Source: Escherichia coli
GTDB lineage: Bacteria > Pseudomonadota > Gammaproteobacteria > Enterobacterales > Enterobacteriaceae
NCBI RefSeq assembly: GCF_029227855.1
Contig: NZ_CP074356.1
Strand: one strand, 5' to 3'
DNA: 64,000 bases
How positions within the stretch are numbered: position 1 is the stretch's first letter; the number at the start of each line of letters is the position of its first letter. The notes beneath the pieces were generated by a model. The model saw only the letters and a program-made list of their open reading frames with translations, did no database searches and had not been told where the DNA came from. The position numbers were made by a program, and so were the translations under genes. Positions 13,176 to 47,929 of the stretch are shown here, piece after piece.

Positions 13176-13320
13176 AACGGGAAAGCCCCTCCCGAGGAAG
13201 GGGCCATAAATAAATAAGGAAAGGGTCATGATGAAGCTACTCATCATCGTGGTGCTCTTAGTCATTAGCTGGCCAGCTTACTAAGACTACCAGGGCGGGG
13301 GAAACCCCGCTCTACCCTCA
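13176..13320 (-). ncRNA. Sib-type antisense sRNA, copy 1 (antitoxin of ibs)
   Basis: Minus-strand promoter TTGACA (13355..13350), 17-bp spacer, TACTTT (13332..13327); transcript fully overlaps ibs copy 1; GC-rich hairpin (13186..13205) followed by a U-rich stretch on the minus strand. Ends are approximate. Confidence 0.5.
13228..13284 (+). CDS. Type I toxin Ibs, 18 aa hydrophobic peptide (MMKLLIIVVLLVISWPAY)
   Basis: ATGATG start followed by a hydrophobic 18-codon ORF, typical of Ibs toxins, preceded by AAGGAAAGGG. Confidence 0.75.
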   Translation: MMKLLIIVVLLVISWPAY

Positions 13321-13506
13321 CTCCTGAAAGTATGCCTTCACGATAAGATTGTCAATCTGCAGGCTTTGCAGTCTGCGATCCTGCCAGCAAATATTCTTTG
13401 CGAGACGTTACGCAATAATCACACTGGAAACTATTTTATCCGCAAGTCAGCGATAGACTGCATACAGGGCGAAAGGAGGTAAGCCGACGATTTCAGCGGG
13501 ACGCTG

Positions 13507-13648
13507 AAACGGGAAAGCCCCTCCCGAGGAAGGGGCCTTAAATAAGGAAAGGGTCATGATGAAGATACTCATCATCGTGGTGCTCTTAGTGATTAGCTAC
13601 CCAGCATACTAAGACTACCAGGGCGGGGGAAACCCCGCTCTACCCTCA
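13507..13648 (-). ncRNA. Sib-type antisense sRNA, copy 2
   Basis: Same architecture as copy 1: minus-strand TTGACA (13683..13678), 17-bp spacer, TAATTT (13660..13655); hairpin plus U-rich 3' end near 13507. Ends are approximate. Confidence 0.5.
13556..13612 (+). CDS. Type I toxin Ibs, 18 aa (MMKILIIVVLLVISYPAY)
   Basis: Paralogue of copy 1 at the same position in repeat unit 2. Confidence 0.75.
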   Translation: MMKILIIVVLLVISYPAY

Positions 13649-13835
13649 CTCCTGAAATTATGCCTTCACGATAAGATTGTCAATCTGCAGGCTTTGCAGT
13701 CTGCGATCCTGCCAGCAAATATTCTTTGCGAGTCGTTACGCAATAATCACAGAGGAAACTATTTTGTTCACGCGTTAGCGATAGACTGCATTCAGGGCGA
13801 AAGGAGGTAAGCCGACGATTTCAGCGGGACGCTGA

Positions 13836-13983
13836 AACGGGAAACCCTCTCCCGGAGAAGAGGGCTTTTAATAAGGAAAGGGTTATGATGAAGCACGTCA
13901 TCATACTGGTGATACTCTTAGTGATTAGCTTCCAGGCTTACTAAGAACACCAGGGGGAGGTGGAAACCTCTCCCTAACCCTCA
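13836..13983 (-). ncRNA. Sib-type antisense sRNA, copy 3
   Basis: Minus-strand TTGACA (14018..14013), 17-bp spacer, TAATTT (13995..13990); diverged hairpin CCCTCTCCCGGAGAAGAGGG. Ends are approximate. Confidence 0.45.
13885..13944 (+). CDS. ibsA: Type I toxin Ibs, 19 aa (MMKHVIILVILLVISFQAY), IbsA-like
   Basis: The 19-aa peptide matches the remembered IbsA sequence; it is the most diverged of the three copies. Confidence 0.7.
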   Translation: MMKHVIILVILLVISFQAY

Positions 13984-14164
13984 CTCCTGAAATTATGTCA
14001 CTCCGCCCTTAGTGTCAATCGACGGCTCTCCGTTCTTGCGAGGCGAATAGCAAAATTTTCTGCGCCGCCGGGCCTAATTCTGAAAGTTTCTTCGTTTGCT
14101 CTTATTTCATTATTGCAGTCGGTATGATACCGGACCTCAATAATTCTCTAAGAAAGGATTTCTT

Positions 14165-17531: not shown

Positions 17532-18884
17532 TTAACGAAACACCACTTCCGCCCAGCGTGCCAGCCCGGCGGTGACGGAGCCAAAGTCATCGCCGCCTGC
17601 AATCGGAATGCCCGGCAACTGTTCTGCCAGCGCTTTTTTAATCAGCGGCGAACGGGCGCTACCGCCGGTCAGGTAGATGACATCCGGTTTTTCCTGGGCG
17701 TTATCCAGCGCCAGTTGCACCTGTTCCAGAATCCGCATCAGTGGCTGGTTGAGGGCGCTTTCCAGCCCTTGCTGGCTAATCAGCGTAGCCAGTTCATCGC
17801 TGATAAACGGCAGTGAGGCGCGGGTTTCCGCTACGCTTGAAAGCGCAATTTTGCTCTCTTCTGCGCTACGTACCAGGCGATAGCTTAAACGCTGACGCCA
17901 GACTTTCTGTAACAGGGCCACTTTTTCCGGTTCGCGGGCATCGCGTACCAGATCGTTAAGCAGACGACCGTTGGCACTACTGTAGAAATCACTTTGCGCA
18001 GGTACGTCGTTGATGGCAACCGCATTCCACCACGGCAGAATCGGCAGGGCGATGCCTTTTTCGGTTTCGCCACCCATGCCCAGTAACGGCATCAGGTTTT
18101 TAAACGCCAGTGCGATATCCAGATCGTTACCGCCAATACGGCAACCACTGTGACCCAGCAGGCTGGCTTCACGATCGAGACGCGAACGCCACTGCGGCCC
18201 CATCAGCAGCAATGAACAGTCAGTCGTACCACCGCCGATATCCACCACCAGCACCCGTTTTTCTTCCTGCAAGGTGGCTTCGTAATCCAGCCCAGCCGCG
18301 ACCGGCTCGTACTGGAATACCACATCCTTAAACCCGGCACGCTTCGCCGCGCGTTCCAGAATCCCCTGCGCCTGGGTGTTTGCTTCATCGCCGCCCAGCC
18401 CCTGGAAGTTGATAGGGCGACCAATCACCGCCTGAGTAATCGCTTCTGGCAGCTGTGCCTGCGCCTGCTGGCGAATGTGCAACATCATTGCGCAGACCAG
18501 ATCCTCAAACAGCGCTACCTGCTGCGGTTTTAAGCCGCTGGCACCGAGGAACGATTTTGGTGATTTCACAAACCACACTTCTTCTGGATCATCAATGTAC
18601 TGTGCCAGTGAGGAAAGACCGAACTGCACGCTTTTCGCCGTAACATCGATATCTTCTTCGCGGTTATAACGAATCGCCCGACGCAACAGCGCCTGCGTTT
18701 CATCGTCGTCTGCCGGAACATCATGATGGCGGTACAGCCATTCGCTTACCGCTTCACGCGTTGGCGCGCAAAGCATTGAAGGCAGCAGCGTGCTGTCGTT
18801 TTCCATTTTCAGTAATTGCGGCTTACCGTCGCGCATGACCGCCACTGAACAGTTTGCTGTACCGTAATCAAAACCAATAAACAC
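17532..18884 (-). CDS. yegD: Hsp70/actin-like ATPase family protein YegD
   Basis: 450 aa from GTG at 18884 with GGGGA Shine-Dalgarno upstream; phosphate-1 motif FIGFDYGTANCSVAV and DIGGGTTDCSLL (Hsp70 fold); convergent with yegI. Confidence 0.85.
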   Translation of the reverse strand: MFIGFDYGTANCSVAVMRDGKPQLLKMENDSTLLPSMLCAPTREAVSEWLYRHHDVPADDDETQALLRRAIRYNREEDIDVTAKSVQFGLSSLAQYIDDPEEVWFVKSPKSFLGASGLKPQQVALFEDLVCAMMLHIRQQAQAQLPEAITQAVIGRPINFQGLGGDEANTQAQGILERAAKRAGFKDVVFQYEPVAAGLDYEATLQEEKRVLVVDIGGGTTDCSLLLMGPQWRSRLDREASLLGHSGCRIGGNDLDIALAFKNLMPLLGMGGETEKGIALPILPWWNAVAINDVPAQSDFYSSANGRLLNDLVRDAREPEKVALLQKVWRQRLSYRLVRSAEESKIALSSVAETRASLPFISDELATLISQQGLESALNQPLMRILEQVQLALDNAQEKPDVIYLTGGSARSPLIKKALAEQLPGIPIAGGDDFGSVTAGLARWAEVVFR

Positions 18885-27029: not shown

Positions 27030-28613
27030 TCACACCTCGTACTCCATCTCGCCATCCTTATGCAGCGGAATAATCTGCACCTTCTGCACGCGATGGCTTT
27101 CCACCTGCAACGTTTTGAGCAAGTAATCCCCTACCTGAACTTCTTCGCCAGGTTTTGGAATACGCTGCAAATATTCCATCAGCAGCCCGGCAATGGTGTG
27201 ATATTCGCGTTTCTCATCCAGCGGTAGCGGCACATATTGCACCAGATCTTCCAGCGGCATATGACCATTCGCCGTCCAGGAACCGTCCGCATTTTTCTGA
27301 ATATCATGGCGGGCGTCGATCTCTTCCACTTCGTTCGGTAAGTTACCGGCAATGGTTTCTGTGACGTCACTTAATGTCACAATCCCTTCCACTGAACCAA
27401 ACTCATCCACCACAAAAGCAAAGTGCGTGCGGGCATTACGGAACTGCTCCAGGGCTGGTAACAACGGCAAGGTTTCCGGGAACACCAGCGGCTGGCGAAT
27501 CAACACCCGCAGGTTGAGCGGTTCGCCGCGCAGTGACTGTTGTAGCAGGTCGATAACGTGAACAACACCGAGCAAATCTTCTGCGTCATCACCGTCGGTA
27601 ACCACCAGCCGCGTATGCTGATTTCGCTCCAGCAACTGGCGGATCTCGTCTTCCGGCGCGTTGAGATCGATATGCTCAATATCGTGGCGCGACGTCATAA
27701 TGCTGCTGACGGTACGCTGATTAAGATTAAGGACCCGCTCAATCATCCGCCGTTCCTGCGGGTTAAAGATCTGCTGGTTACCATGATCCACCAGCATGGA
27801 CGCGGTTTCGGCGTCCAGTTCCGCATCTTCTTTTTGCCCGCTAAGCAGGCGCATTACCGCTTCGGTAGTCCGCTGGCGCAGCGTCTGGTTAGCGGAAAGA
27901 AAACGTCGCCGGTTAAAGATAGCCAACTGATTGAGCGCCTCGATCATCACCGAGAAACCAATGGCAGCGTACAGGTAGCCTTTCGGAATGACGAAGCCGA
28001 AACCTTCCGCCACCAGGCTAAAGCCAATCATCAACAGGAAACTTAAGCAGAGTATGACGATGGTCGGGTGGCTATTAACAAACTGAGTTAACGGCTTGCT
28101 GGCCATCAACATCAGGCTGATAGCGATAACGACGGCGGCCATCATGACCAGTAAATGGTCGACCATTCCGACGGCGGTAATCACCGAGTCGAGTGAGAAG
28201 ATGGCGTCCAGCACCACAATTTGCGTCACCACCCCCCAGAACTTCGCACCTTTGCGTTGCGTGGGGTTATTGCTGTCTTTCCCTTCCAGCCGTTCGTTCA
28301 ACTCCATCGTGGCTTTGAACAACAGGAAGAAACCACCAAACAGCATGATTAAGTCGCGGGCGCTAAAGGTAAACGAGCGGAAGCTGAACAGTGGTTGCGT
28401 CAGGGTGACCAGCCAGGAGATTGACGCCAGCAGTAACAGGCGCATTAACATTGCCAGCAGCAGCCCGGTAACTCGTGCGCGGTCACGCTGCTTCGGCGGT
28501 AGTTTTTCGGCGAGGATGGCAATAAAGACCAGGTTATCAATGCCGAGGACCAGTTCGATCACAATCAGCGTGATTAACCCGGCCCAGATAGACGGATCGG
28601 CAATCCATTCCAT
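27030..28613 (-). CDS. yegH: TerC-family membrane protein with CBS/CorC domains YegH
   Basis: 527 aa from ATG at 28613 ([30 protein letters not shown], TerC motif); C-terminal CBS pair and CorC domain. Confidence 0.9.
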
Positions 28614-29044
28614 AGTAAGTACAAAACCTATTCGTTGTATGACAAATGTCACAATTCGATCATGGATAAATCAGGGCAAAAATGCAATGTTACGGCACTA
28701 TTTATCTCACATTATTTGAGGATTATAACATCGCATTATCCCTGAATTAAAAGTGGTAATAATAAAATATTATTTAAGAAATATCGCATATAGATACGCC
28801 GTATTAAATATTGTCAACATAAAGAAACTCCTAAAAAATACCACACATGACACTTAATATAATTCTTAAAAATAGCCAATTGCCGATTTGTTACCTTGCC
28901 TGCAATTCCGTTAGCTGTAACACTTCCTCCTGCATTATTGTAGAGCTAATATTCAATTACCATAATGCCACCTTATATCTGGAAAATTAATATCCGGAAT
29001 AACGCTTTTTCATAAACGACTGCGTTAGAAAATCTAAGCTAAAT

Positions 29045-29083
29045 CAGTGTATTGGTAGCTAAAAAGCCAGGGGCGGTAGCGTG
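29045..29083 (+). promoter_or_regulatory. JUMPstart element with ops (GGCGGTAGCGTG, RfaH recruitment) in the colanic acid operon leader
   Basis: CAGTGTATTGGTAGCTAAAAAGCCAGGGGCGGTAGCGTG matches the 39-bp JUMPstart consensus; ops core at 29072..29083, about 180 bp upstream of wza. Confidence 0.7.
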
Positions 29084-29261
29084 TCTGGATGCCTGAAAGA
29101 CCAGTCTGAATTATTCTTTCAATAGCCTGCGGATGAAATCAATTTTTTTAGGACTGATGCCAGTTAAATTTTTATTCAATTAACTGCAAGGTAAATGTGC
29201 ATGGCGACATTGCTATTAATAGTGCACAGGATAATTACTCTGCCAAAGTGATAAATAAACA

Positions 29262-30401
29262 ATGATGAAATCCAAAATGAAATTGATGCCATTATTGGTG
29301 TCAGTAACCTTGATAAGCGGTTGCACAGTACTTCCGGGCAGCAATATGTCTACGATGGGTAAAGACGTCATCAAACAGCAGGACGCTGATTTCGATCTCG
29401 ACAAAATGGTGAATGTTTATCCGTTGACCCCGCGCCTGATTGATCAATTACGCCCACGCCCCAACGTAGCGCGCCCCAATATGACGCTGGAAAGCGAGAT
29501 CGCGAATTACCAGTATCGCGTCGGGCCGGGGGACGTTCTTAATGTCACCGTCTGGGATCACCCGGAGCTCACCACGCCAGCCGGTCAGTACCGCAGCTCC
29601 AGCGACACCGGCAACTGGGTACAGCCTGACGGCACCATGTTCTACCCGTATATCGGCAAGGTTCACGTCGTGGGGAAAACGCTCGCTGAAATCCGCAGTG
29701 ATATTACCGGGCGCTTAGCGACGTACATCGCTGATCCGCAGGTGGACGTTAATATCGCCGCCTTCCGCTCACAAAAGGCCTATATCTCCGGTCAGGTGAA
29801 TAAATCCGGTCAACAGGCGATCACCAACGTGCCACTGACCATTCTCGATGCCATCAACGCCGCAGGTGGCCTGACCGACACCGCTGACTGGCGCAACGTG
29901 GTGCTAACACACAATGGTCGTGAAGAACGCATTTCTTTGCAGGCGCTGATGCAAAACGGCGACCTCAATCAGAACCGACTGCTTTATCCTGGCGATATTC
30001 TCTACGTGCCGCGTAATGATGATCTGAAAGTGTTTGTGATGGGTGAAGTGAAAAAACAGAGCACCCTGAAAATGGACTTTAGCGGCATGACCCTGACTGA
30101 AGCCCTGGGCAATGCTGAAGGCATCGACATGACCACCTCCAACGCCAGCGGCATCTTTGTCATTCGTCCGCTGAAAGGCGAGGGCGGGCGTAACGGCAAG
30201 ATTGCCAATATCTATCAGCTGGATATGTCCGATGCCACGTCGCTGGTGATGGCGACAGAATTCCGCCTGCAACCTTATGACGTGGTGTATGTCACCACCG
30301 CACCGGTTTCCCGCTGGAACCGTCTGATCAATCAGTTGCTGCCAACTATTAGCGGTGTCCGTTACATGACGGATACAGCCAGCGACATTCATAACTGGTA
30401 A
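29262..30401 (+). CDS. wza: Colanic acid outer membrane export lipoprotein Wza
   Basis: 379 aa; lipoprotein signal [21 protein letters not shown]. Confidence 0.95.
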
Positions 30402-30406
30402 TCGTC

Positions 30407-30850
30407 ATGTTTAACAACATCTTAGTTGTCTGCGTCGGCAATATTTGCCGTTCCCCGACGGCGGAACGCTTACTGCAACGTTATCACCCGGAGCTAAAAG
30501 TGGAGTCCGCTGGACTCGGCGCGCTGGTCGGAAAGGGCGCTGATCCTACCGCTATCAGCGTCGCCGCAGAACATCAACTGTCTCTGGAAGGTCATTGCGC
30601 ACGGCAAATCAGCCGCCGTCTGTGTCGCAACTACGACCTGATTCTGACCATGGAAAAGCGCCATATCGAACGCTTATGCGAGATGGCACCGGAGATGCGC
30701 GGCAAAGTGATGCTGTTTGGTCACTGGGATAACGAATGTGAAATCCCCGATCCGTATCGCAAAAGCCGGGAAACGTTTGCAGCGGTGTACACATTACTTG
30801 AACGGTCTGCCCGCCAGTGGGCGCAGGCATTGAACGCAGAGCAGGTATAA
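30407..30850 (+). CDS. wzb: Low-molecular-weight protein-tyrosine phosphatase Wzb
   Basis: 147 aa; CX5R P-loop VCVGNICRSPTAE. Confidence 0.95.
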   Translation: MFNNILVVCVGNICRSPTAERLLQRYHPELKVESAGLGALVGKGADPTAISVAAEHQLSLEGHCARQISRRLCRNYDLILTMEKRHIERLCEMAPEMRGKVMLFGHWDNECEIPDPYRKSRETFAAVYTLLERSARQWAQALNAEQV

Positions 30851-30852
30851 GA

Positions 30853-33015
30853 ATGACAGAAAAAGTAAAACAACATGCCGCTCCGGTAACGGGCAGTGAT
30901 GAAATCGATATTGGTCGCCTGGTCGGCACCGTCATTGAAGCGCGCTGGTGGGTGATTGGCATCACCGCCGTATTTGCCCTCTGTGCCGTGGTTTACACCT
31001 TCTTCGCCACGCCGATTTATAGTGCCGACGCACTGGTACAAATCGAGCAAAACAGCGGCAATTCGTTAGTGCAGGACATTGGTTCGGCATTAGCCAACAA
31101 ACCGCCAGCATCGGACGCCGAGATCCAGTTGATTCGTTCGCGTCTGGTGCTTGGTAAAACGGTGGACGATCTCGACCTCGATATTGCAGTGAGCAAAAAC
31201 ACGTTCCCGATTTTCGGTGCGGGCTGGGATCGCCTGATGGGACGCCAGAACGAGACGGTAAAAGTGACCACCTTTAACCGCCCGAAAGAGATGGCGGATC
31301 AGGTGTTTACGCTTAATGTGCTGGACGATAAAAACTACACTCTGAGCAGCGATGGCGGCTTTAGCGCCCGTGGGCAAGCGGGCCAGATGCTGAAAAAAGA
31401 AGGCGTCACACTGATGGTTGAAGCCATTCACGCCAGCCCGGGCAGTGAGTTTACCGTCACCAAATACTCCACGCTGGGGATGATCAACCAACTGCAAAAC
31501 AGCCTGACGGTAATGGAGAACGGCAAAGACGCAGGCGTACTGAGCCTGACTTATACCGGTGAAGATCGCGAACAGATCCGCGACATTCTTAACAGCATCG
31601 CTCGTAACTATCAGGAACAAAATATTGAGCGCAAATCGGCGGAAGCGTCGAAAAGCCTCGCTTTCCTCGCGCAACAGTTACCGGAAGTACGTAGCCGCCT
31701 TGATGTTGCCGAAAACAAACTGAATGCCTTCCGTCAGGATAAAGATTCTGTTGATCTGCCGCTGGAAGCGAAAGCGGTGCTCGATTCGATGGTGAACATC
31801 GACGCGCAGTTGAACGAACTGACCTTTAAAGAGGCGGAAATCTCCAAGCTGTACACTAAAGTTCACCCGGCGTACCGCACGCTGCTGGAGAAACGGCAGG
31901 CGCTGGAAGACGAAAAAGCCAAACTGAACGGGCGTGTAACGGCGATGCCGAAAACCCAGCAGGAAATTGTCCGTCTGACCCGCGATGTCGAGTCTGGTCA
32001 ACAGGTCTATATGCAACTGCTGAATAAAGAGCAGGAGCTGAAAATCACCGAAGCCAGCACCGTCGGCGATGTGCGCATTGTTGACCCGGCAATCACCCAG
32101 CCTGGCGTGCTAAAACCGAAGAAAGGGCTGATTATCCTCGGCGCGATTATCCTTGGCCTGATGCTCTCTATCGTGGGTGTGCTGCTGCGCTCGTTGTTTA
32201 ATCGCGGCATCGAAAGCCCGCAGGTGCTGGAAGAACACGGTATCAGCGTCTATGCCAGCATCCCGTTGTCGGAATGGCAGAAAGCGCGCGATAGCGTCAA
32301 AACCATCAAAGGGATTAAACGCTATAAACAGAGCCAGCTACTGGCGGTGGGGAATCCAACCGATCTGGCGATTGAAGCCATTCGCAGTCTGCGTACCAGT
32401 CTGCACTTCGCGATGATGCAGGCACAGAACAATGTGTTGATGATGACAGGGGTTAGCCCGTCAATCGGTAAAACCTTTGTCTGCGCCAACCTGGCGGCGG
32501 TGATCAGCCAGACCAATAAACGGGTGTTGTTGATCGACTGCGATATGCGCAAAGGCTACACCCACGAGCTGTTGGGCACTAATAACGTTAATGGCCTGTC
32601 GGAAATTCTGATTGGTCAGGGCGATATTACTACCGCTGCTAAACCGACCTCTATTGCCAAATTTGACCTGATCCCGCGCGGTCAGGTACCGCCAAATCCT
32701 TCTGAACTGTTGATGAGCGAACGCTTTGCCGAACTGGTGAACTGGGCGAGTAAAAACTACGACCTGGTGTTGATTGATACGCCGCCGATTCTGGCAGTGA
32801 CCGATGCCGCAATTGTTGGTCGTCATGTCGGAACCACGTTAATGGTGGCGCGTTATGCGGTCAACACATTGAAAGAAGTGGAAACCAGTCTGAGCCGCTT
32901 TGAGCAAAACGGTATTCCGGTGAAAGGGGTGATTCTGAACTCCATCTTCCGCCGCGCCAGCGCGTATCAGGATTATGGCTATTACGAATACGAATATAAG
33001 TCGGACGCGAAATAA
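30853..33015 (+). CDS. wzc: Tyrosine autokinase / polysaccharide co-polymerase Wzc
   Basis: 720 aa from ATG at 30853 (MTEKVKQHAAP...); Walker A GVSPSIGKT and C-terminal Tyr-rich tail YQDYGYYEYEYKSD. Confidence 0.95.
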   Translation: MTEKVKQHAAPVTGSDEIDIGRLVGTVIEARWWVIGITAVFALCAVVYTFFATPIYSADALVQIEQNSGNSLVQDIGSALANKPPASDAEIQLIRSRLVLGKTVDDLDLDIAVSKNTFPIFGAGWDRLMGRQNETVKVTTFNRPKEMADQVFTLNVLDDKNYTLSSDGGFSARGQAGQMLKKEGVTLMVEAIHASPGSEFTVTKYSTLGMINQLQNSLTVMENGKDAGVLSLTYTGEDREQIRDILNSIARNYQEQNIERKSAEASKSLAFLAQQLPEVRSRLDVAENKLNAFRQDKDSVDLPLEAKAVLDSMVNIDAQLNELTFKEAEISKLYTKVHPAYRTLLEKRQALEDEKAKLNGRVTAMPKTQQEIVRLTRDVESGQQVYMQLLNKEQELKITEASTVGDVRIVDPAITQPGVLKPKKGLIILGAIILGLMLSIVGVLLRSLFNRGIESPQVLEEHGISVYASIPLSEWQKARDSVKTIKGIKRYKQSQLLAVGNPTDLAIEAIRSLRTSLHFAMMQAQNNVLMMTGVSPSIGKTFVCANLAAVISQTNKRVLLIDCDMRKGYTHELLGTNNVNGLSEILIGQGDITTAAKPTSIAKFDLIPRGQVPPNPSELLMSERFAELVNWASKNYDLVLIDTPPILAVTDAAIVGRHVGTTLMVARYAVNTLKEVETSLSRFEQNGIPVKGVILNSIFRRASAYQDYGYYEYEYKSDAK

Positions 33016-33023
33016 CGAGATCC

Positions 33024-33082
33024 GCTGTCGGATGCGATGCTGACGCATCTTATCCGACCTCCGTTCACGCCGCATCCGGCAA
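33024..33082. repeat. REP-like palindromic unit(s) (possible BIME)
   Basis: CGGATGCGATGCTGACGCATCTTATCCGACC ... CGCCGCATCCGGC between wzc and wcaA. Confidence 0.35.
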
Positions 33083-33143
33083 CAGAACCCGTAAACAAGC
33101 TTATAAACCGGCAGAACATCTCGACACTCCGGGAGAACAACCT

Positions 33144-33983
33144 ATGAAAGACAATCCGCTGATCTCAATCTATATGCCGACCTGGAATCGCCAACAACTG
33201 GCGATTCGGGCGATAAAATCGGTCCTGCGCCAGGACTATAATAACTGGGAGATGATCATCGTGGATGATTGCTCCACCTCCTGGGAACAACTGCAACAGT
33301 ACGTCACCGCCCTCAACGATCCGCGTATTACTTACATTCACAACGACATAAACAGCGGGGCGTGCGCGGTACGTAACCAGGCGATTATGCTGGCGCAAGG
33401 GGAATACATCACCGGGATCGATGATGATGATGAATGGACGCCCAACCGCTTGAGCGTCTTCCTCGCCCATAAACAGCAACTGGTCACACACGCCTTTTTG
33501 TACGCTAACGACTACGTTTGCCAGGGCGAAGTCTATTCCCAACCAGCAAGTTTGCCGCTATATCCCAAATCGCCGTATTCACGCCGCCTGTTCTATAAAC
33601 GCAATATCATTGGCAATCAGGTCTTTACCTGGGCGTGGCGTTTCAAAGAGTGTTTGTTTGATACCGAACTGAAAGCGGCACAGGATTACGACATCTTCCT
33701 GCGGATGGTGGTGGAGTATGGCGAACCGTGGAAAGTGGAAGAGGCGACGCAGATCCTGCATATCAATCACGGCGAAATGCAGATCACCTCGTCACCGAAA
33801 AAATTCTCCGGATACTTCCACTTTTACCGTAAGCACAAAGACAAATTTGACCGCGCCAGCAAAAAATATCAGCTGTTTACCCTCTACCAGATCCGCAATA
33901 AACGCATGACCTGGCGCACTTTGCTGACGCTGCTGTCGGTGCGTAACGGCAAACGTCTGGCTGATGGTATTCGGGGGCGCTAA
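33144..33983 (+). CDS. wcaA: Colanic acid glycosyltransferase WcaA (GT2)
   Basis: 279 aa; GT2 signature ISIYMPTWNRQ...DDCS. Confidence 0.9.
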   Translation: MKDNPLISIYMPTWNRQQLAIRAIKSVLRQDYNNWEMIIVDDCSTSWEQLQQYVTALNDPRITYIHNDINSGACAVRNQAIMLAQGEYITGIDDDDEWTPNRLSVFLAHKQQLVTHAFLYANDYVCQGEVYSQPASLPLYPKSPYSRRLFYKRNIIGNQVFTWAWRFKECLFDTELKAAQDYDIFLRMVVEYGEPWKVEEATQILHINHGEMQITSSPKKFSGYFHFYRKHKDKFDRASKKYQLFTLYQIRNKRMTWRTLLTLLSVRNGKRLADGIRGR

Positions 33984-33985
33984 AG

Positions 33986-34474
33986 ATGCTGGAAGATCTG
34001 CGCGCCAACAGCTGGAGTTTACGCCCGTGCTGCATGGTTCTTGCCTATCGCGCCGCTCATTTTTGTTCGGTGTGGCGCAAAAAGAACGTTCTCAACAATA
34101 TTTGGGCGGCCCCGCTGCTGGTGCTGTATCGCATTATCACCGAATGCTTTTTCGGTTATGAAATCCAGGCAGCCGCAACCATTGGTCGCCGCTTTACTAT
34201 CCATCACGGTTACGCCGTAGTGATCAATAAAAACGTGGTTGCGGGGGATGATTTCACCATTCGCCACGGCGTCACTATCGGCAATCGTGGTGCCGATAAC
34301 ATGGCATGTCCACACATTGGCAACGGCGTCGAACTCGGTGCCAACGTCATTATTCTTGGTGATATCACGCTTGGTAACAACGTCACCGTGGGCGCGGGCA
34401 GCGTGGTGCTCGACTCTGTCCCGGACAACGCGCTGGTGGTGGGAGAAAAAGCGCGAGTGAAGGTAATTAAATGA
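33986..34474 (+). CDS. wcaB: Colanic acid acetyltransferase WcaB (hexapeptide-repeat)
   Basis: 162 aa; left-handed beta-helix hexapeptide repeats. Confidence 0.9.
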   Translation: MLEDLRANSWSLRPCCMVLAYRAAHFCSVWRKKNVLNNIWAAPLLVLYRIITECFFGYEIQAAATIGRRFTIHHGYAVVINKNVVAGDDFTIRHGVTIGNRGADNMACPHIGNGVELGANVIILGDITLGNNVTVGAGSVVLDSVPDNALVVGEKARVKVIK

Positions 34475-35688
34475 ATATTCTGCAATTTAATGTGCGACTG
34501 GCGGAAGGCGGTGCGGCAGGTGTGGCGTTAGATCTCCACCAGCGAGCACTGCAACAGGGGCTGGCGTCACATTTTGTCTACGGCTACGGCAAAGGCGGCA
34601 AAGAGAGCGTCAGCCATCAGAACTATCCGCAGGTCATCAAATATACGCCGCGGATGACCGCGATGGCGAATATTGCTCTGTTTCGTCTGTTTAATCGCGA
34701 TCTGTTTGGCAATTTCAATGAGTTATATCGCACCATTACTCGCACACCGGGTCCGGTGGTCCTGCATTTTCATGTGCTGCACAGCTACTGGCTAAATCTT
34801 AAGAGCGTGGTGCGCTTTTGCGAAAAGGTGAAAAACTATAAACCGGACGTCACTCTGGTCTGGACGCTGCACGACCACTGGAGCGTTACCGGACGCTGCG
34901 CCTTTACCGACGGTTGTGACGGCTGGAAAACAGGCTGCCGGAAATGCCCGACCTTAAATAATTATCCGCCGGTGAAGATTGATCGCGCACACCAGCTGGT
35001 GGCGGGCAAACGCCAGTTATTCCGTGAGATGCTGGCGCTGGGCTGTCAGTTTATTTCCCCCAGCCAGCATGTGGCTGATGCTTTCAATAGTCTGTACGGT
35101 CCAGGGCGTTGCCGGATTATCAATAATGGCATTGATATGGCAACCGAAGCGATTCTGGCGGACTTGCCTCCGGTGCGCGAAACTCAGGGCAAGCCGAAAA
35201 TCGCGGTGGTAGCGCATGACCTGCGTTACGACGGCAAGACTAACCAGCAACTGGTGCGTGAGATGATGGCGCTGGGCGACAAAATCGAACTACATACCTT
35301 CGGTAAGTTCTCGTCGTTCACCGCTGGCAACGTGGTTAATCACGGCTTTGAAACTGACAAGCGCAAGTTGATGAGCGCGCTCAATCAGATGGATGCGCTG
35401 GTATTCAGTTCTCGCGTCGATAACTACCCACTGATTTTGTGTGAGGCGCTATCGATTGGTGTGCCGGTGATTGCCACCCATAGCGACGCGGCACGTGAAG
35501 TGTTGCAAAAATCCGGCGGTAAAACCGTCAGCGAAGAAGACGTGCTGCAACTGGTGCAGTTAAGCAAACCGGAAATCGCGCAGGCGATATTTAGTACCAC
35601 GCTGGCTGAGTTCAGCCAACGCAGCCGCGTCGCCTACAGTGGACAACAGATGCTGGAGGAGTATGTCAACTTCTATCAGAATCTGTAG
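34471..35688 (+). CDS. wcaC: Colanic acid glycosyltransferase WcaC
   Basis: 405 aa; position and sequence consistent with WcaC. Confidence 0.9.
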   Translation: MNILQFNVRLAEGGAAGVALDLHQRALQQGLASHFVYGYGKGGKESVSHQNYPQVIKYTPRMTAMANIALFRLFNRDLFGNFNELYRTITRTPGPVVLHFHVLHSYWLNLKSVVRFCEKVKNYKPDVTLVWTLHDHWSVTGRCAFTDGCDGWKTGCRKCPTLNNYPPVKIDRAHQLVAGKRQLFREMLALGCQFISPSQHVADAFNSLYGPGRCRIINNGIDMATEAILADLPPVRETQGKPKIAVVAHDLRYDGKTNQQLVREMMALGDKIELHTFGKFSSFTAGNVVNHGFETDKRKLMSALNQMDALVFSSRVDNYPLILCEALSIGVPVIATHSDAAREVLQKSGGKTVSEEDVLQLVQLSKPEIAQAIFSTTLAEFSQRSRVAYSGQQMLEEYVNFYQNL

Positions 35689-36880
35689 CTACCTGCTGCT
35701 GCCGCTGATTTACCTGTTGGTTAACGTCAAAATCGCCCAGCTTGGCGAAAGTTTCCCCATCACCATCGTCACTTTTTTACCCGTCTTGTTATTGCTGTTT
35801 TTAGAACGCATCAGCGTTAAAAAATTGATGATTGCCTTAGGGATTGGCGCGGGACTCACGGCGTTTAACTACCTGTTTGGTCAGTCGTTGGATGCCAGTA
35901 AATACGTCACTTCAACCATGCTGTTTGTCTATATTGTGATCATTATTGGCATGGTGTGGAGTATTCGCTTTAAAACGATTTCGCCCCACAACCACCGCAA
36001 GATATTACGCTTTTTTTATCTGGTGGTCGGGTTGGTGGTGGCGCTGGCGGCGGTGGAGATGGCGCAAATTATCCTCACCGGTGGCAGCAGTATTATGGAG
36101 TCGATTTCAAAATATCTGATTTACAGCAACAGCTATGTACTGAATTTCATTAAATTCGGCGGCAAGCGCACGACAGCACTTTATTTCGAACCGGCATTTT
36201 TCGCTCTGGCATTAATCTCAATTTGGCTCAGCATCAAACAGTTTGGTATCAAAACCCCTAAAACCGATGCTATGATTCTCGCAGGGATAATATTATCCGG
36301 ATCGTTTTCAGGGGTTATGACCTTTATCCTGTTTTATTTGCTGGAGTGGGCATTTCAATATCTGAATAAAGAGGCGATTAAGAAAAAGTTACCGTTAGCA
36401 TTGATTTCTCTGGCTGTATTCCTGGTTGGTGTGGTAATTGCATTTCCTTATATTTCCACCCGTCTGGGCGATTTAGGTACGGAAGGATCGTCATCATATT
36501 ATCGTATTGTCGGTCCGCTGGTGATGGTCGGTTATTCTTTGACCCATATTGACGGTGTAGTCAGATTTGGCTCACTTTATGAATATGTCGCATCATTCGG
36601 AATATTTAACGGTGCGGATGTCGGAAAAACCATAGACAATGGTTTGTATCTGCTGATTATTTATTTTTCCTGGTTCGCGGTGTTTTTATCACTGTGGTAC
36701 ATGGGGAAAGTGATAAAAATGATGATCAACGCTTTTGGTGATAACCGCAATTTTCGCGTGCAATTATATCTTTTTACTCCGGTATCGCTGTTTTTTACCG
36801 GTTCGATATTTAGCCCGGAATATGCATTTTTAATCGTCTGTCCGTTTATTTTGCGAAAAGCGTTAAATATTACGAGGTAA
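35663..36880 (+). CDS. wcaD: Colanic acid polymerase WcaD
   Basis: 405 aa from ATG at 35663 ([22 protein letters not shown]...); polytopic membrane protein. Confidence 0.9.
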
Positions 36881-36890
36881 GAATAAGAAC

Positions 36891-37637
36891 ATGTTGCTTA
36901 GCATAATCACTGTCGCGTTTCGTAACCTCGCAGGGATAGTCAAAACACACGCCTCGCTGGCGCATCTGGCGCAGGCGGACGATATCAGCTTCGAATGGAT
37001 TGTTGTCGATGGCGGTTCCAATGACGGCACCCGTGAGTACCTGGAAAATCTCAATGGTATCTATAACCTACGCTTTGTCAGCGAGCCAGATAACGGTATC
37101 TACGACGCCATGAACAAGGGCATTGCGATGGCACAAGGCAAGTTCGCGTTGTTTCTCAACTCGGGCGATATTTTTCATCAGGATGCCGCAAATTTTGTCC
37201 GTAAGTTAAAAGTGCAAAAAGATAACGTGATGATCACCGGCGATGCGCTGCTGGATTTTGGCGACGGGCATAAGATTAAACGTAGCGCCAAACCGGGGTG
37301 GTATATTTATCACAGCCTGCCCGCCAGTCATCAGGCGATATTTTTTCCGGTATCCGGCTTGAAAAAATGGCGTTATGACCTGGAATATAAAGTTTCTTCC
37401 GACTACGCGCTGGCAGCCAAAATGTATAAAGCCGGTTATGCATTTAAAAAACTCAATGGCCTGGTGTCTGAATTTTCTATGGGTGGAGTATCTACCACCA
37501 ATAATATGGAATTATGTGCTGACGCCAAAAAAGTCCAACGGCAGATATTGCACGTGCCTGGCTTTTGGGCTGAATTATCCTGGCATTTACGCCAACGTAC
37601 TACCTCAAAGACGAAAGCCTTATATAACAAAAGCTGA
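36891..37637 (+). CDS. wcaE: Colanic acid glycosyltransferase WcaE (GT2)
   Basis: 248 aa; [15 protein letters not shown]...[10 protein letters not shown]. Confidence 0.9.
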
Positions 37638-37652
37638 ATATAAGGGAAAACG

Positions 37653-38201
37653 ATGCAGGATTTAAGTGGTTTCTCGGTGCCGAAAGGGTTCCGGGGCGGC
37701 AACGCTATTAAAGTGCAATTGTGGTGGGCGGTACAGGCAACATTATTTGCCTGGTCGCCACAAGTATTGTATCGCTGGCGGGCATTTTTATTACGTTTAT
37801 TCGGCGCAAAAATAGGAAAAAACGTAGTTATTCGTCCGTCAGTAAAAATTACCTATCCGTGGAAATTAACCTTAGGTGATTACGCGTGGGTCGGCGATGA
37901 CGTCAATTTATATACCCTCGGTGAAATAACCATTGGCGCACATTCGGTGATATCGCAAAAAAGTTATTTATGCACCGGGAGCCACGACCATGCAAGTCAA
38001 CATTTCACCATTAACGCCACGCCTATTGTGATTGGCGAGAAATGCTGGCTGGCGACAGATGTTTTTGTTGCCCCAGGCGTCACGATTGGCGACGGCACCG
38101 TCGTGGGTGCACGAAGCAGTGTTTTTAAATCGCTCCCGGCAAATGTGGTTTGCCGGGGGAATCCCGCAGTGGTGATACGCGAACGCGTTGAAACTGAATA
38201 A
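37653..38201 (+). CDS. wcaF: Colanic acid acetyltransferase WcaF
   Basis: 182 aa; hexapeptide-repeat acyltransferase. Confidence 0.9.
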   Translation: MQDLSGFSVPKGFRGGNAIKVQLWWAVQATLFAWSPQVLYRWRAFLLRLFGAKIGKNVVIRPSVKITYPWKLTLGDYAWVGDDVNLYTLGEITIGAHSVISQKSYLCTGSHDHASQHFTINATPIVIGEKCWLATDVFVAPGVTIGDGTVVGARSSVFKSLPANVVCRGNPAVVIRERVETE

Positions 38202-38227
38202 ATTCAAAAAATACAGAGGAATAAGAC

Positions 38228-39349
38228 ATGTCAAAAGTCGCTCTCATCACCGGTGTAACCGGACAAGACGGTTCTTACCTGGCAGAGTTTCTGCTGGAAA
38301 AAGGTTACGAGGTGCATGGTATTAAGCGTCGCGCATCGTCATTCAACACCGAGCGCGTGGATCACATTTATCAGGATCCGCACACCTGCAACCCGAAATT
38401 CCATCTGCATTATGGCGACCTGAGTGATACCTCCAACCTGACGCGCATTTTGCGTGAAGTGCAGCCGGATGAAGTGTACAACCTGGGCGCAATGAGCCAC
38501 GTTGCGGTTTCTTTTGAGTCACCGGAATATACCGCAGACGTCGATGCGATGGGTACGCTGCGCCTGCTCGAGGCGATCCGCTTCCTCGGTCTGGAAAAGA
38601 AAACCCGTTTCTATCAGGCTTCCACCTCTGAACTGTATGGTCTGGTGCAGGAAATTCCGCAGAAAGAGACCACGCCGTTCTACCCGCGATCTCCGTATGC
38701 GGTCGCCAAACTGTACGCCTACTGGATCACCGTTAACTACCGCGAATCCTACGGCATGTACGCCTGTAACGGTATTCTCTTCAACCATGAATCCCCGCGC
38801 CGCGGCGAAACCTTCGTTACCCGCAAAATCACCCGCGCAATCGCCAACATCGCCCAGGGGCTGGAATCGTGCCTGTACCTCGGCAATATGGATTCCCTGC
38901 GTGACTGGGGCCACGCCAAAGACTACGTAAAAATGCAGTGGATGATGCTGCAACAGGAACAGCCGGAAGATTTCGTTATCGCGACCGGCGTTCAGTACTC
39001 CGTACGTCAGTTCGTGGAAATGGCGGCAGCACAGCTGGGCATCAAACTGCGCTTTGAAGGCACGGGTGTTGAAGAGAAGGGCATTGTGGTTTCCGTCACC
39101 GGGCATGACGCGCCGGGCGTTAAACCGGGCGATGTGATTATCGCCATTGATCCGCGTTACTTCCGTCCGGCAGAAGTTGAAACGCTGCTCGGTGACCCGA
39201 CCAAAGCGAACGAAAAACTGGGCTGGAAACCGGAAATCACCCTCAGAGAGATGGTGTCTGAAATGGTGGCTAATGACCTCGAAGCGGCGAAAAAACACTC
39301 TCTGCTGAAATCTCACGGCTACGACGTGGCGATCGCGCTGGAGTCATAA
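38228..39349 (+). CDS. gmd: GDP-mannose 4,6-dehydratase
   Basis: 373 aa; [31 protein letters not shown]. Confidence 0.95.
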
Positions 39350-39351
39350 GC

Positions 39352-40317
39352 ATGAGTAGACAACGCATTTTTATCGCTGGCCATCGCGGGATGGTCGGTT
39401 CTGCCATCAGGCGGCAGCTCGAACAGCGCGGTGATGTGGAACTGGTATTACGCACCCGCGACGAGCTGAACCTGCTGGACAGCCGCGCGGTGCATGATTT
39501 CTTTGCCAGCGAACGTATTGACCAGGTCTATCTGGCGGCGGCGAAAGTGGGCGGCATTGTTGCCAACAACACGTATCCGGCGGATTTCATCTACCAGAAC
39601 ATGATGATTGAGAGCAACATCATTCACGCCGCGCATCAGAACGACGTGAACAAACTGCTGTTTCTCGGATCGTCCTGTATCTACCCGAAACTGGCAAAAC
39701 AGCCGATGGCAGAAAGCGAGTTATTGCAGGGTACGCTGGAGCCGACCAACGAGCCTTATGCCATTGCCAAAATCGCTGGGATCAAACTGTGCGAATCTTA
39801 CAACCGCCAGTATGGACGCGATTACCGCTCGGTCATGCCGACCAACCTGTATGGCCCGCATGACAACTTCCACCCGAGTAATTCGCATGTGATCCCAGCA
39901 TTGCTGCGTCGCTTCCACGAGGCGACGGCACAGAATGCGCCGGACGTGGTGGTGTGGGGCAGCGGTACACCGATGCGTGAATTTCTGCACGTCGATGATA
40001 TGGCGGCGGCAAGCATTCATGTGATGGAGCTGGCGCACGAAGTCTGGCTGGAAAACACCCAGCCGATGTTGTCGCACATTAACGTCGGCACGGGCGTTGA
40101 CTGCACCATCCGTGAACTGGCGCAAACCATCGCCAAAGTGGTGGGTTACAAAGGTCGGGTGGTTTTTGATGCCAGCAAACCGGATGGCACACCGCGCAAA
40201 CTGCTGGATGTGACGCGCCTGCATCAGCTTGGCTGGTATCACGAAATCTCACTGGAAGCGGGGCTTGCCAGCACTTACCAGTGGTTCCTTGAGAATCAAG
40301 ACCGCTTTCGGGGGTAA
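39352..40317 (+). CDS. fcl: GDP-L-fucose synthase (WcaG)
   Basis: 321 aa; [24 protein letters not shown]. Confidence 0.95.
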
Positions 40318-40319
40318 TG

Positions 40320-40799
40320 ATGTTTTTACGTCAGGAAGACTTTGCCACGGTAGTGCGCTCCACTCCGCTTGTCTCTCTCGACTTTATTGTTGAGAACAGT
40401 CGCGGCGAGTTTCTGCTTGGCAAAAGAACCAACCGCCCGGCGCAGGGTTACTGGTTTGTGCCGGGAGGGCGCGTGCAGAAAGACGAAACGCTGGAAGCCG
40501 CATTTGAGCGGCTGACGATGGCGGAACTGGGGCTGCGTCTGCCGATAACAGCAGGCCAGTTTTACGGTGTCTGGCAGCACTTTTATGACGATAACTTCTC
40601 CGGCACGGATTTCACCACTCACTATTTGGTGCTCGGTTTTCGCTTCAGAGTAGCGGAAGAAGAGCTGTTACTGCCGGATGAGCAGCATGACGATTACCGC
40701 TGGCTGACGCCGGACGCACTGCTCGCCAGTGACAATGTTCACGCTAACAGCCGCGCCTATTTTCTCGCTGAGAAGCGTGCCGGAGTACCCGGATTATGA
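40320..40799 (+). CDS. gmm: GDP-mannose mannosyl hydrolase (Nudix; WcaH/NudD)
   Basis: 159 aa from the second ATG ([21 protein letters not shown]); Nudix fold. Confidence 0.9.
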
Positions 40800-42019
40800 A
40801 AATACTGGTCTACGGCATTAACTACTCGCCGGAGTTAACCGGCATCGGCAAATACACCGGAGAGATGGTGGAATGGCTTGCGGCACAAGGTCATGAGGTG
40901 CGGGTCATAACCGCACCGCCTTACTACCCGCAGTGGCAGGTGGGCGAGAACTATTCCGCCTGGCGCTACAAACGAGAAGAGGGGGCCGCCACGGTGTGGC
41001 GCTGCCCGCTGTACGTGCCAAAACAGCCGAGCACCCTGAAACGCTTGTTGCATCTCGGCAGTTTTGCCGTCAGCAGTTTTTTCCCGTTGATGGCGCAACG
41101 TCGCTGGAAGCCGGATCGCATTATTGGCGTGGTGCCAACGCTGTTTTGCACGCCGGGAATGCGCCTGCTGGCGAAACTCTCTGGCGCGCGTACCGTGCTG
41201 CATATTCAGGATTACGAAGTGGACGCCATGCTGGGGCTGGGCCTTGCCGGAAAAGGCAAAGGCGGCAAAGTGGCACAGCTGGCGACGGCGTTCGAACGTA
41301 GCGGACTGCATAACGTCGATAACGTCTCCACGATTTCGCGCTCGATGATGAATAAAGCCATCGAAAAAGGCGTGGCGGCGGAAAACGTCATCTTCTTCCC
41401 CAACTGGTCGGAAATCGCCCGTTTTCAATATGTTGCAGACGCCGATGTTGATGCCCTTCGTAACCAGCTTGGCCTGCCGGATAACAAAAAAATCATTCTT
41501 TACTCCGGCAATATTGGTGAAAAGCAGGGGCTGGAAAACGTTATTGAAGCTGCCGATCACCTGCGCGATGAACCGCTGATTTTTGCCATTGTCGGGCAGG
41601 GCGGCGGCAAAGCGCGGCTGGAAAAAATGGCGCAGCAGCGCGGACTGCGCAACATGCAATTTTTTCCGCTGCAATCGTATGACGCTTTACCCGCACTGCT
41701 GAAGATGGGCGATTGCCATCTGGTGGTGCAAAAACGCGGCGCGGCAGATGCCGTATTGCCGTCGAAACTGACCAATATTCTGGCGGTAGGCGGTAACGCG
41801 GTGATTACCGCAGAAGCCCACACCGAACTGGGGCAGCTTTGCGAAACCTTTCCGGGCATTGCGGTTTGCGTAGAGCCGGAATCGGTCGAGGCGCTGGTGG
41901 CGGGGATCCGTCAGGCGCTCCTGCTGCCCAAACACAACACGGTGGCATGTGAATATGCCGAACGCACGCTCGATAAAGAGAACGTGTTACGTCAATTTAT
42001 AAATGATATTCGGGGATAA
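40796..42019 (+). CDS. wcaI: Colanic acid glycosyltransferase WcaI
   Basis: 407 aa; [24 protein letters not shown]. Confidence 0.9.
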
Positions 42020-42021
42020 TT

Positions 42022-43458
42022 ATGGCGCAGTCGAAACTCTATCCAGTTGTGATGGCAGGTGGCTCCGGTAGCCGCTTATGGCCGCTTTCCCGCGTACTTT
42101 ACCCCAAGCAGTTTTTATGCCTGAAAGGCGATCTCACCATGCTGCAAACCACCATCTGCCGCCTGAACGGCGTGGAGTGCGAAAGCCCGGTGGTGATTTG
42201 CAATGAGCAGCACCGCTTTATTGTCGCGGAACAGCTGCGTCAACTGAACAAACTCACCGAGAATATTATTCTCGAACCGGCAGGGCGTAACACTGCACCT
42301 GCCATTGCACTGGCGGCGCTGGCGGCAAAACGTCATAGCCCGGAGAGCGACCCGTTAATGCTGGTGCTGGCGGCGGATCATGTGATTGCCGATGAAGACG
42401 CGTTCCGTGCCGCCGTGCGTAATGCCATGCCGTATGCCGAAGCGGGCAAGCTGGTGACCTTTGGCATTGTGCCGGATCTACCAGAAACCGGTTATGGCTA
42501 TATTCGTCGCGGTGAAGTGTCTGCGGGTGAGCAGGATACGGTGGCCTTTGAAGTGGCGCAGTTTGTCGAAAAACCGAATCTGGAAACCGCTCAGGCCTAT
42601 GTGGCAAGCGGCGAATATTACTGGAACAGCGGTATGTTTCTGTTCCGCGCCGGACGCTATCTCGAAGAACTGAAAAAATATCGCCCGGATATTCTCGACG
42701 CCTGTGAAAAAGCGATGAGCGCCGTCGATCCGGATCTCGATTTTATTCGTGTGAATGAAGACGCGTTTCTGGCGTGCCCGGAAGAGTCGGTGGATTACGC
42801 GGTCATGGAACGTACGGCAGATGCTGTTGTGGTGCCGATGGATGCGGGCTGGAGCGATGTTGGTTCCTGGTCCTCTTTATGGGAAATCAGCGCCCACACC
42901 GCCGAGGGCAACGTTTGCCACGGCGATGTGATTAATCATAAAACTGAAAACAGCTATGTGTACGCCGAATCTGGCCTGGTCACCACCGTCGGGGTGAAAG
43001 ATTTGGTGGTAGTGCAGACCAAAGATGCGGTGCTGATTGCCGACCGTAACGCGGTACAGGATGTGAAAAAAGTGGTCGAGCAGATCAAAGCCGACGGTCG
43101 CCATGAGCATCGGGTGCATCGCGAAGTGTATCGTCCGTGGGGCAAATATGACTCTATTGATGCGGGCGACCGCTACCAGGTGAAACGCATCACCGTGAAA
43201 CCGGGCGAAGGCTTGTCAGTACAGATGCACCATCACCGCGCGGAACACTGGGTAGTGGTCGCGGGAACGGCAAAAGTCACTATTGACGGTGATATCAAAC
43301 TGCTTGGTGAAAACGAGTCCATTTATATTCCGCTGGGGGCGACGCACTGCCTGGAAAACCCGGGGAAAATTCCGCTCGATTTAATTGAAGTGCGCTCCGG
43401 CTCTTATCTCGAAGAGGATGATGTGGTGCGCTTCGCGGATCGCTACGGACGGGTGTAG
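42022..43458 (+). CDS. cpsB: Mannose-1-phosphate guanylyltransferase (ManC/CpsB)
   Basis: 478 aa; [24 protein letters not shown]. Confidence 0.95.
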
Positions 43459-43558
43459 CCGTTGAATAATCAACCGGATTAATTCTCCGGTAAATAACGA
43501 AAAAACAAAATTGGCCGCTTCGGTCAGGGCCAACTATTGCCTGAAAAAGGGTAACGAT

Positions 43559-44929
43559 ATGAAAAAATTAACCTGCTTTAAAGCCTATGATATTCGCGGG
43601 AAATTAGGCGAAGAACTGAATGAAGATATTGCCTGGCGTATTGGGCGTGCCTATGGCGAATTTCTCAAACCGAAAACCATTGTGTTAGGCGGTGATGTCC
43701 GCCTCACCAGCGAAACCTTAAAACTGGCGCTGGCAAAAGGTTTACAGGATACGGGCGTCGATGTGCTGGATATTGGCATGTCCGGCACCGAAGAGATCTA
43801 TTTCGCCACGTTCCATCTCGGCGTGGCTGGCGGCATTGAAGTTACCGCCAGCCATAACCCGATGGATTACAACGGCATGAAACTGGTGCGCGAAGGGGCT
43901 CGCCCGATCAGCGGCGATACCGGACTGCGCGACGTCCAGCGTCTGGCAGAAGCCAATGACTTCCCTCCTGTCGATGAAACCAAACGCGGTCGCTATCAGC
44001 AAATCAATCTGCGTGACGCTTACGTTGATCACCTGTTCGGCTATATCAACGTCAAAAACCTCACGCCGCTCAAGCTGGTGATCAACTCCGGGAACGGCGC
44101 GGCGGGGCCGGTGGTGGACGCCATTGAAGCTCGCTTTAAAGCCCTCGGCGCACCCGTGGAATTGATCAAAGTGCACAACACGCCGGACGGGAATTTCCCC
44201 AACGGTATACCTAACCCGCTGCTGCCGGAATGTCGCGACGACACCCGCAATGCGGTCATCAAACACGGCGCGGATATGGGCATTGCTTTTGATGGCGATT
44301 TTGACCGCTGCTTCCTGTTTGACGAAAAAGGGCAGTTTATCGAGGGCTACTACATTGTCGGCCTGCTGGCAGAAGCGTTCCTCGAAAAAAATCCCGGCGC
44401 GAAGATCATCCACGATCCACGTCTCTCCTGGAACACCGTTGATGTGGTGACTGCCGCTGGCGGCACGCCGGTGATGTCGAAAACCGGACACGCCTTTATT
44501 AAAGAACGTATGCGCAAGGAAGACGCCATCTACGGTGGCGAAATGAGCGCTCACCATTACTTCCGCGATTTCGCTTACTGTGACAGCGGCATGATCCCGT
44601 GGCTGCTGGTCGCCGAACTGGTGTGCCTGAAAGGAAAAACGCTGGGCGAACTGGTGCGCGACCGGATGGCGGCGTTTCCGGCAAGCGGTGAGATCAACAG
44701 CAAACTGGCACACCCCGTTGAGGCGATTAACCGCGTGGAACAGCATTTTAGCCGTGAGGCGCTGGCGGTGGATCGCACCGATGGCATCAGCATGACCTTT
44801 GCCGACTGGCGCTTTAACCTGCGCTCCTCCAACACCGAACCGGTGGTGCGGTTGAATGTGGAATCGCGCGGCGATGTACCGCTGATGGAAGCGCGAACGC
44901 GAACTCTGCTGACGTTGCTGAACGAGTAA
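43559..44929 (+). CDS. cpsG: Phosphomannomutase (ManB/CpsG)
   Basis: 456 aa from ATG at 43559 ([20 protein letters not shown]); active-site TASHNP. Confidence 0.95.
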
Positions 44930-44983
44930 TGTCGGATCTTCCCTTACCCCACTGCGGGTAAGGGGCTAATAACAGGAACAACG

Positions 44984-46378: not shown

Positions 46379-46379
46379 T

Positions 46380-47858: not shown

Positions 47859-47929
47859 ATGGTTGTTTTAGGCTCCGGCAATAAAAACAACAACATAACC
47901 TCACCTGGCACCAAATTTATGAGGAAAAA

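Follow-up and report, generated by a model that had tools for sequence, protein, structure and literature searches.

RfaH-dependent polysaccharide operons

In the quoted parts of the RfaH literature, RfaH is described as binding only RNA polymerase that stands at or beyond an ops sequence exposed on the non-template strand, where it replaces NusG. It suppresses pausing and Rho-dependent termination, counters the roadblocks formed by H-NS and StpA, and recruits S10 for coupling to translation. A lack of ribosome-binding sites is reported in such excerpts for RfaH operons (waaQ, rfb), and colanic acid production is termed RfaH-regulated. For the JUMPstart/RfaH mechanism at the colanic acid operon, later papers, in the passages available, cite Stout 1996 and Hobbs & Reeves 1994.

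An experimentally described case is the same operon in E. coli CFT073, where wza-wcaM is one of four 'cryptic RfaH-regulated loci' with an RfaH ChIP-seq signal after deletion of hns and stpA (PMC9765446). The CFT073 wza promoter is silenced by H-NS in rich medium (Hustmyer et al. 2022, PMC9765446), and at wza RfaH is seen by ChIP when both hns and stpA are deleted but not in the rfaH mutant (PMC9765446). In Data set S2 of that work, the wza ops is listed with the sequence GGCGGTAGCGTG and the position -190 relative to wza; it lies on the non-template strand of the UTR and is RfaH-positive, and the start site is entered as 'NA' (PMC9765446). A JUMPstart ahead of the colanic acid genes was already known in the mid-1990s; demonstration of RfaH at its ops followed in 2022.

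The group 1 capsule clusters (E. coli K30, Klebsiella cps) also carry JUMPstart/ops ahead of wza-wzb-wzc and a stem-loop after wzc, but, according to passages that cite Rahn & Whitfield 2003, they are located after galF and begin with wzi. In the quoted sources, RfaH-dependent read-through of the stem-loop after wzc was studied in these group 1 clusters and not in the colanic acid operon. A claim that colanic acid genes downstream of wzc need RfaH was discarded, as in the passages available it traces to the K30 capsule cluster.

The colanic acid locus and the yegH-wza spacer

The window, by which we mean the whole 64-kb stretch of E. coli DNA analysed, carries in order udk-dcd-asmA, yegH on the (-) strand, wza-wzb-wzc-wcaA...wcaM on the (+) strand, galF, an O23-type O-antigen cluster, gnd, ugd, wzzB, and hisIE. 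Gene positions were taken from the annotation of one genome with an identical spacer and mapped onto the window by tblastn; the yegH-wza spacer is 100% identical to that of three E. coli genomes. By this mapping yegH occupies 27030..28613 (-), and the wza-wcaM colanic acid operon, the presumed target of RfaH-modified polymerase, spans 29262..51832 (+) with 20 genes in 22.6 kb, in agreement with the ~23 kb given by an earlier sequence-only reading of this DNA. Between them lies a spacer of 648 bp (28614..29261) with 33.6% GC, compared to 52.7% in the operon, a composition that fits the H-NS binding reported at the locus. The earlier reading had described a ~600-bp AT-rich leader. The AT-richness and the approximate length hold; however, this is the whole intergenic region between divergent genes, and therefore not all of the 648 bp is leader.

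In the K-12 cps (wza) leader, which is flanked by yegH and wza as well, the 39-nt JUMPstart is identical and the 178 nt from ops to the wza ATG differ at one base. The upstream part is more divergent: the window carries an 11-bp deletion ~20 nt upstream of JUMPstart, and its identity to K-12 falls from 94% beside yegH to 88% over the Rcs and promoter blocks and to 75% from there to JUMPstart. In CFT073, the same operon is preceded by the same ops 12-mer at the same 190 nt from the ATG (PMC9765446). This sharing of sequence and spacing with a site of known occupancy means that the interpretation given below is supported and not new. CFT073 is, however, another strain, and occupancy there was shown only in the hns stpA double mutant. 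The ChIP signal at its ops implies that ops is transcribed in CFT073; it is possible that in the double mutant, as opposed to Rcs-induced cells, this reflects spurious initiation. The window ops is also identical to the top-scoring CFT073 ops sequences, those of rfaQ, wzx, and wza (PMC9765446).

The two sides of the spacer have different distributions within the species. Of 4818 E. coli genomes, 4205 match the segment from JUMPstart to the ATG (217 nt) with at least 99% identity, while the 432 nt on the promoter side (28614..29044) reach at least 99% identity in only 4 of 5426 E. coli genomes and are 90-95% identical in 4803. The window thus joins a rare promoter-side allele to the species-wide ops-side allele, which suggests a recombination junction near the element.

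The JUMPstart element and its ops core

A 39-nt JUMPstart, CAGTGTATTGGTAGCTAAAAAGCCAGGGGCGGTAGCGTG, is present at 29045..29083 (+), exactly where the sequence-only reading had placed it. Rfam family RF01707 (JUMPstart) matches precisely this interval over model positions 1-38 of 38, scoring 57.3 bits where the gathering score is 35, with a whole-window E-value of 1.6e-10 (cmscan). The last 12 nt (29072..29083, +) are GGCGGTAGCGTG, which bears out the claim of a perfect ops core. For transcription of wza this sequence lies on the non-template, coding-sense strand, and it fits the 12-nt ops consensus GGCGGTAGnnTG. The distance to wza, given earlier as about 180 bp, is 178 nt from the end of ops to the ATG at 29262, or 190 nt if counted from the start of ops. 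The element is placed in an untranslated spacer, on the same strand as wza and ahead of a 20-gene polysaccharide operon.

Given the base composition, ~0.0075 exact copies of GGCGGTAGCGTG would be expected in the 64-kb window; two are observed, both on the (+) strand and both in operon leaders. The shorter ops-core 8-mer GGCGGTAG occurs four more times, for a total of six against 1.3 expected. These additional copies are all intragenic, at 41782..41789 (+), 28495..28502 (+), 10264..10271 (-), and 17659..17666 (-), and one of them is on the non-template strand inside wcaI. None has T11/G12, so that the full 12-nt ops is confined to the two leader copies. Intragenic 8-mers of this class, lacking T11/G12, do not recruit RfaH (Hustmyer et al. 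2022, PMC9765446).

We are highly confident that 29045..29083 is the JUMPstart/ops native to wza-wcaM, the colanic acid operon of E. coli, and a loading site for RfaH. The action of RfaH at this operon, proposed earlier, is supported by the full JUMPstart, the perfect non-template ops, the position in an untranslated region before a long polysaccharide operon, the Shine-Dalgarno-poor start of wza, and the ChIP-seq data from CFT073.

The 5' half of JUMPstart contains a hairpin at 29052..29070 (+), with the arms UUGGU (29052-56) and GCCAG (29066-70) and a 9-nt loop. Its five base pairs are followed by the conserved tail GGGCGGUAGCGUG, and no non-canonical pair was flagged in the cmscan alignment. 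Position U11 of ops (29082), which we take to be the pause position, is 12 nt downstream of the 3' base of this hairpin (29070). Such a distance is typical of pause hairpins.

The hairpin invites another explanation, namely that JUMPstart acts mainly as RNA, either as a hairpin cis-regulator or as a short ops leader transcript that titrates RfaH in the manner of RirA, an sRNA from the waaQ leader. Recognition of the non-template DNA would in that case be secondary. The name of the Rfam family, 'JUMPstart RNA', implies a cis-regulatory structure, and the 12-nt distance to the presumed pause may point to a link with pause hairpins. Moreover, the outer pair of the hairpin covaries: among the matches listed, 118 distinct JUMPstarts have C-G in 49 cases, U-A in 37, U.G in 24, and no pairing in 8, and a 3' A is accompanied by a 5' U in 37 of 38 cases. 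Both bases of this pair sit at positions left free by the degenerate search pattern. On the other hand, the 39-mer folded by itself as RNA is not unusually stable (z = -0.03), two of the five hairpin pairs in the wza leader are U.G wobbles, an RNAalifold analysis of the leader yields essentially no covariation signal, and ops is reported, in the quoted literature, to work only on the non-template strand. We consider a mainly RNA-level role highly improbable; an RNA contribution would complement loading of RfaH at the DNA level and not replace it.

The second JUMPstart in the window, absent from the earlier reading, lies at 53158..53196 (+), between galF and the O23-type O-antigen cluster (RF01707, 60 bits), with an identical ops. 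It shares with the wza copy its 3' 24 nt, including ops, and a following first gene without a Shine-Dalgarno sequence: 152 nt downstream is the ATG of wzy (53337), for which no Shine-Dalgarno pairing is predicted (+1.7 kcal/mol). It differs at six positions in the 5' half, has a stronger hairpin, and precedes a constitutively transcribed O-antigen (rfb) cluster of 31% GC, whereas the wza copy belongs to an Rcs-induced operon. JUMPstarts of this galF-O-antigen class are bound by RfaH in wild-type CFT073 (PMC9765446).

Conservation of the element

Of 5426 complete E. coli genomes, 4140 contain the exact 39-mer and a further 437 carry it with one mismatch. The gene rfaH is outside the window; it was found in 5425 of the 5426 genomes, and the species can accordingly be taken to encode RfaH. 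Within the yegH-wza spacer, constraint is strongest between ops and the ATG.

A degenerate JUMPstart pattern searched against one genome per species yielded at least 120 loci; among the matches listed, nearly all are in Enterobacterales, with additional ones in Shewanella and Aeromonas. Neighbouring genes identified by tblastn sort these loci, again among the matches listed, into three classes. In class 1, JUMPstart is found between yegH and wza-wzb-wzc, at the same distance from wza as in the window. The hosts include Citrobacter, Salmonella enterica arizonae, Kluyvera, Pseudocitrobacter, another Enterobacteriaceae isolate, E. coli, and E. whittamii, and this gene order around JUMPstart is shared by six genera of Enterobacteriaceae. 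In class 2, JUMPstart follows yegH but precedes other EPS clusters (Pantoea, Mixta, Erwinia, Winslowiella, Brenneria, Pectobacterium, Serratia). In class 3, it is located after wcaM-galF and ahead of O- or K-antigen clusters. Among the matches listed, JUMPstart is the one element that class-1 leaders have in common with their yegH-linked EPS counterparts in Erwiniaceae, Pectobacteriaceae, and Yersiniaceae.

Some JUMPstarts were found in records titled Arthrobacter sp., Erysipelotrichia, Thomasclavelia, Peptococcaceae MAGs, and Martelella alba (loci L019, L048, L060, L066, and L087). At L019 and L060 the adjacent galF is 94-98% identical to that of E. coli, and L087 carries asmA, yegH, and wza. 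Enterobacterial genes beside JUMPstart in these three records suggest that the assemblies are probably contaminated or misbinned.

To obtain a footprint of the spacer, we aligned 18 class-1 leaders from six genera. The conserved blocks are 28640-28689 next to yegH, three Rcs-box-like sites, 28888-28930, JUMPstart, and the 3' leader; the stretch 28935-29040 is variable.

The promoter side of the spacer

The RcsAB box was defined by the 14-bp consensus TaAGaatatTCcta (Wehland & Bernhard 2000). A strict search allowing at most three mismatches gave no site in the yegH-wza spacer. In the interval 28700..29000, which the earlier reading suggested searching for an RcsAB box, there are three conserved candidates, at 28775..28868 (+); none of them comes within three mismatches of the consensus. 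Site A (28775..28788, +; TAAGAAATATCGCA) matches it at 9 of 14 positions, including all five most-conserved ones, and is conserved in Escherichia, Citrobacter, and Salmonella in the leader alignment. Site B (28820..28833, +; TAAAGAAACTCCTA) matches at 10 of 14 positions, and its right half, TCCTA, is invariant in 18 of 18 aligned leaders. Site C (28855..28868, +; TAATATAATTCTTA), also with 10 of 14 matches, is nearly invariant in the 18 leaders and agrees at 11 of 14 positions with the K. pneumoniae galF RcsAB box TAAGATTATTCTCA. The candidate strings had no match in the literature searched, and nothing usable was found there on where the promoter, the start site, or the RcsAB box of wza is located. 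Given their conservation, control by Rcs through these Rcs-box-like candidates, in addition to RfaH, is plausible.

A candidate core promoter at 28896..28924 (+) consists of the putative -35 element TTGCCT (28896-901), a 17-nt spacer, and the extended -10 element TGtAACACT (28916-24). It falls inside the block 28888-28930, the most conserved part of the upstream spacer in the 18 leaders from six genera. The position of this block suggests that transcription of wza may start near 28931, which would give a leader of ~330 nt and place ops 141 nt from the start. A simple sigma-70 scan of the spacer missed this candidate and returned only TTGTCA-17-AAAAAT at 28811-28839, with fewer matches than in shuffled sequences. 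Another promoter candidate, TTGTAG-17-CATAAT (28938-28966), was rejected, as it is not conserved outside Escherichia. The terminator scan found no site in the leader.

At the opposite end of the spacer, a palindrome TGACAAATGTCA followed by ATTCGATCATGGATAA (28641..28670) adjoins the start of yegH and is kept in nearly all 18 leaders. A role as an operator, either of yegH alone or of both divergent genes, is possible.

The leader between ops and wza

The 3' leader from ops to the wza ATG (29084..29261, +) combines high conservation with a start region that almost lacks a Shine-Dalgarno sequence. The part 29108..29261 is near-invariant across six genera, especially GCACAGGATAATTACTCTGCCAAAGTGATAAATAAACAATG directly before the start codon. 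The predicted duplex of the wza start region with the anti-Shine-Dalgarno sequence is -1.6 kcal/mol, the weakest among the wca genes scored, most of which have values from -4.7 to -12.3. This near-absence agrees with the RfaH operons for which, in the quoted sources, ribosome-binding sites are reported to be lacking.

Conserved RNA structure as the cause of this conservation was rejected: the RNAalifold covariation term for 17 leaders is -0.17, and the single-sequence MFE has z = -0.17. The conservation is thus at the level of sequence. RNAalifold did propose a 7-bp pairing of the JUMPstart arm UUGGUAG (29052-58) with an invariant CUGCCAA (29240-46). Such a pairing could link the passage of polymerase through ops to the translation of wza. 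We have set it aside, as both sides never vary and the CUGCCAA box, like other blocks of the 3' leader, is absent from class-2 leaders. There is a slim chance that 29108..29261 forms a dedicated module, on which the ribosome recruited by RfaH might land or to which an unknown protein or sRNA might bind.

As JUMPstart at this locus has been described before, its identification here has little discovery value. It is useful for annotation, as the element is real and the geometry of the leader is fixed in this strain. What retains interest is the unexplained conserved leader between ops and the Shine-Dalgarno-poor start of wza.

RfaH and transcription of the wza-wcaM operon

We searched the operon for the signals that RfaH-modified polymerase might override. 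Intrinsic-terminator-like sites are not enriched in it, with 23 found and 23.4 expected, which speaks against intrinsic terminators as the intra-operon targets of RfaH and makes Rho- or H-NS-dependent signals more likely. RfaH is better described here as a processivity factor that works against Rho and H-NS and couples transcription to the ribosome than as a classical antiterminator acting at intrinsic terminators. Only four gaps exceed 50 nt in wza-wcaM, and most wca genes lie close together and are coupled in translation.

The largest untranslated gap, of 128 nt, separates wzc from wcaA. It contains two REP-like palindromic units (33027..33082), in a region that folds more stably than shuffled sequences (z = -3.0). 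A REP-like hairpin without a U-tract, identified from sequence and fold, is located at 33027..33058 (+). By analogy with the stem-loop that follows wzc in the group 1 capsule clusters, this hairpin may mark a site of attenuation or Rho loading, whose effect RfaH would overcome. It differs from its counterpart in those clusters in being REP-like and lacking a U-tract. In another gap, the 100 nt between cpsB and cpsG, the Rfam algC RNA motif (RF02929, 77.3 bits) is found at 43505..43554 (+), directly ahead of the phosphomannomutase gene.

The compact structure of the operon bears on whether RfaH matters much for its distal genes. The element could be conserved and yet functionally minor, with initiation by RcsAB and silencing by H-NS governing expression and RfaH adding little distally. 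The packed, coupled wca genes, with four gaps above 50 nt and no excess of intrinsic terminators, leave few obvious entry points for Rho. In addition, wild-type CFT073 in rich medium has neither an RNA polymerase nor an RfaH signal at the locus, and RfaH appears only after deletion of hns and stpA. Still, conservation is far higher in the 39-mer and in the whole leader from ops to the ATG than elsewhere in the spacer, and JUMPstart is kept at the same position across genera. That wza almost lacks a Shine-Dalgarno sequence is an argument for coupling of the RfaH type being required to translate the first gene, and the literature, in its quoted parts, calls colanic acid production RfaH-regulated. 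We therefore regard a minor role as quite improbable, and prefer RfaH loading at ops with an effect along the operon.

Under RfaH loading, transcription would begin at an Rcs-activated, H-NS-silenced promoter upstream of JUMPstart, with a putative start near 28931. RNA polymerase would transcribe ~140 nt and pause at ops, where the non-template GGCGGTAGCGTG would form a small hairpin exposed at the surface of the enzyme. RfaH would recognise this hairpin, bind in place of NusG, and refold its C-terminal domain. The polymerase modified in this way would resist pausing, backtracking, Rho-dependent termination, and H-NS roadblocks over 22.6 kb, and RfaH would probably recruit the ribosome to the wza start, which is almost without a Shine-Dalgarno sequence.

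Other RNA elements in the window

Away from the operon, Rfam matches include three tandem SIB RNA genes at 13213..14018 (-) (RF00113, 140-149 bits), which encode antitoxin RNAs of the Ibs/Sib type I toxin-antitoxin system. A match to the Hfq-binding sRNA STnc490 (RF01405, 144.6 bits) is located at 61770..61893 (+), near the 3' end of gnd.
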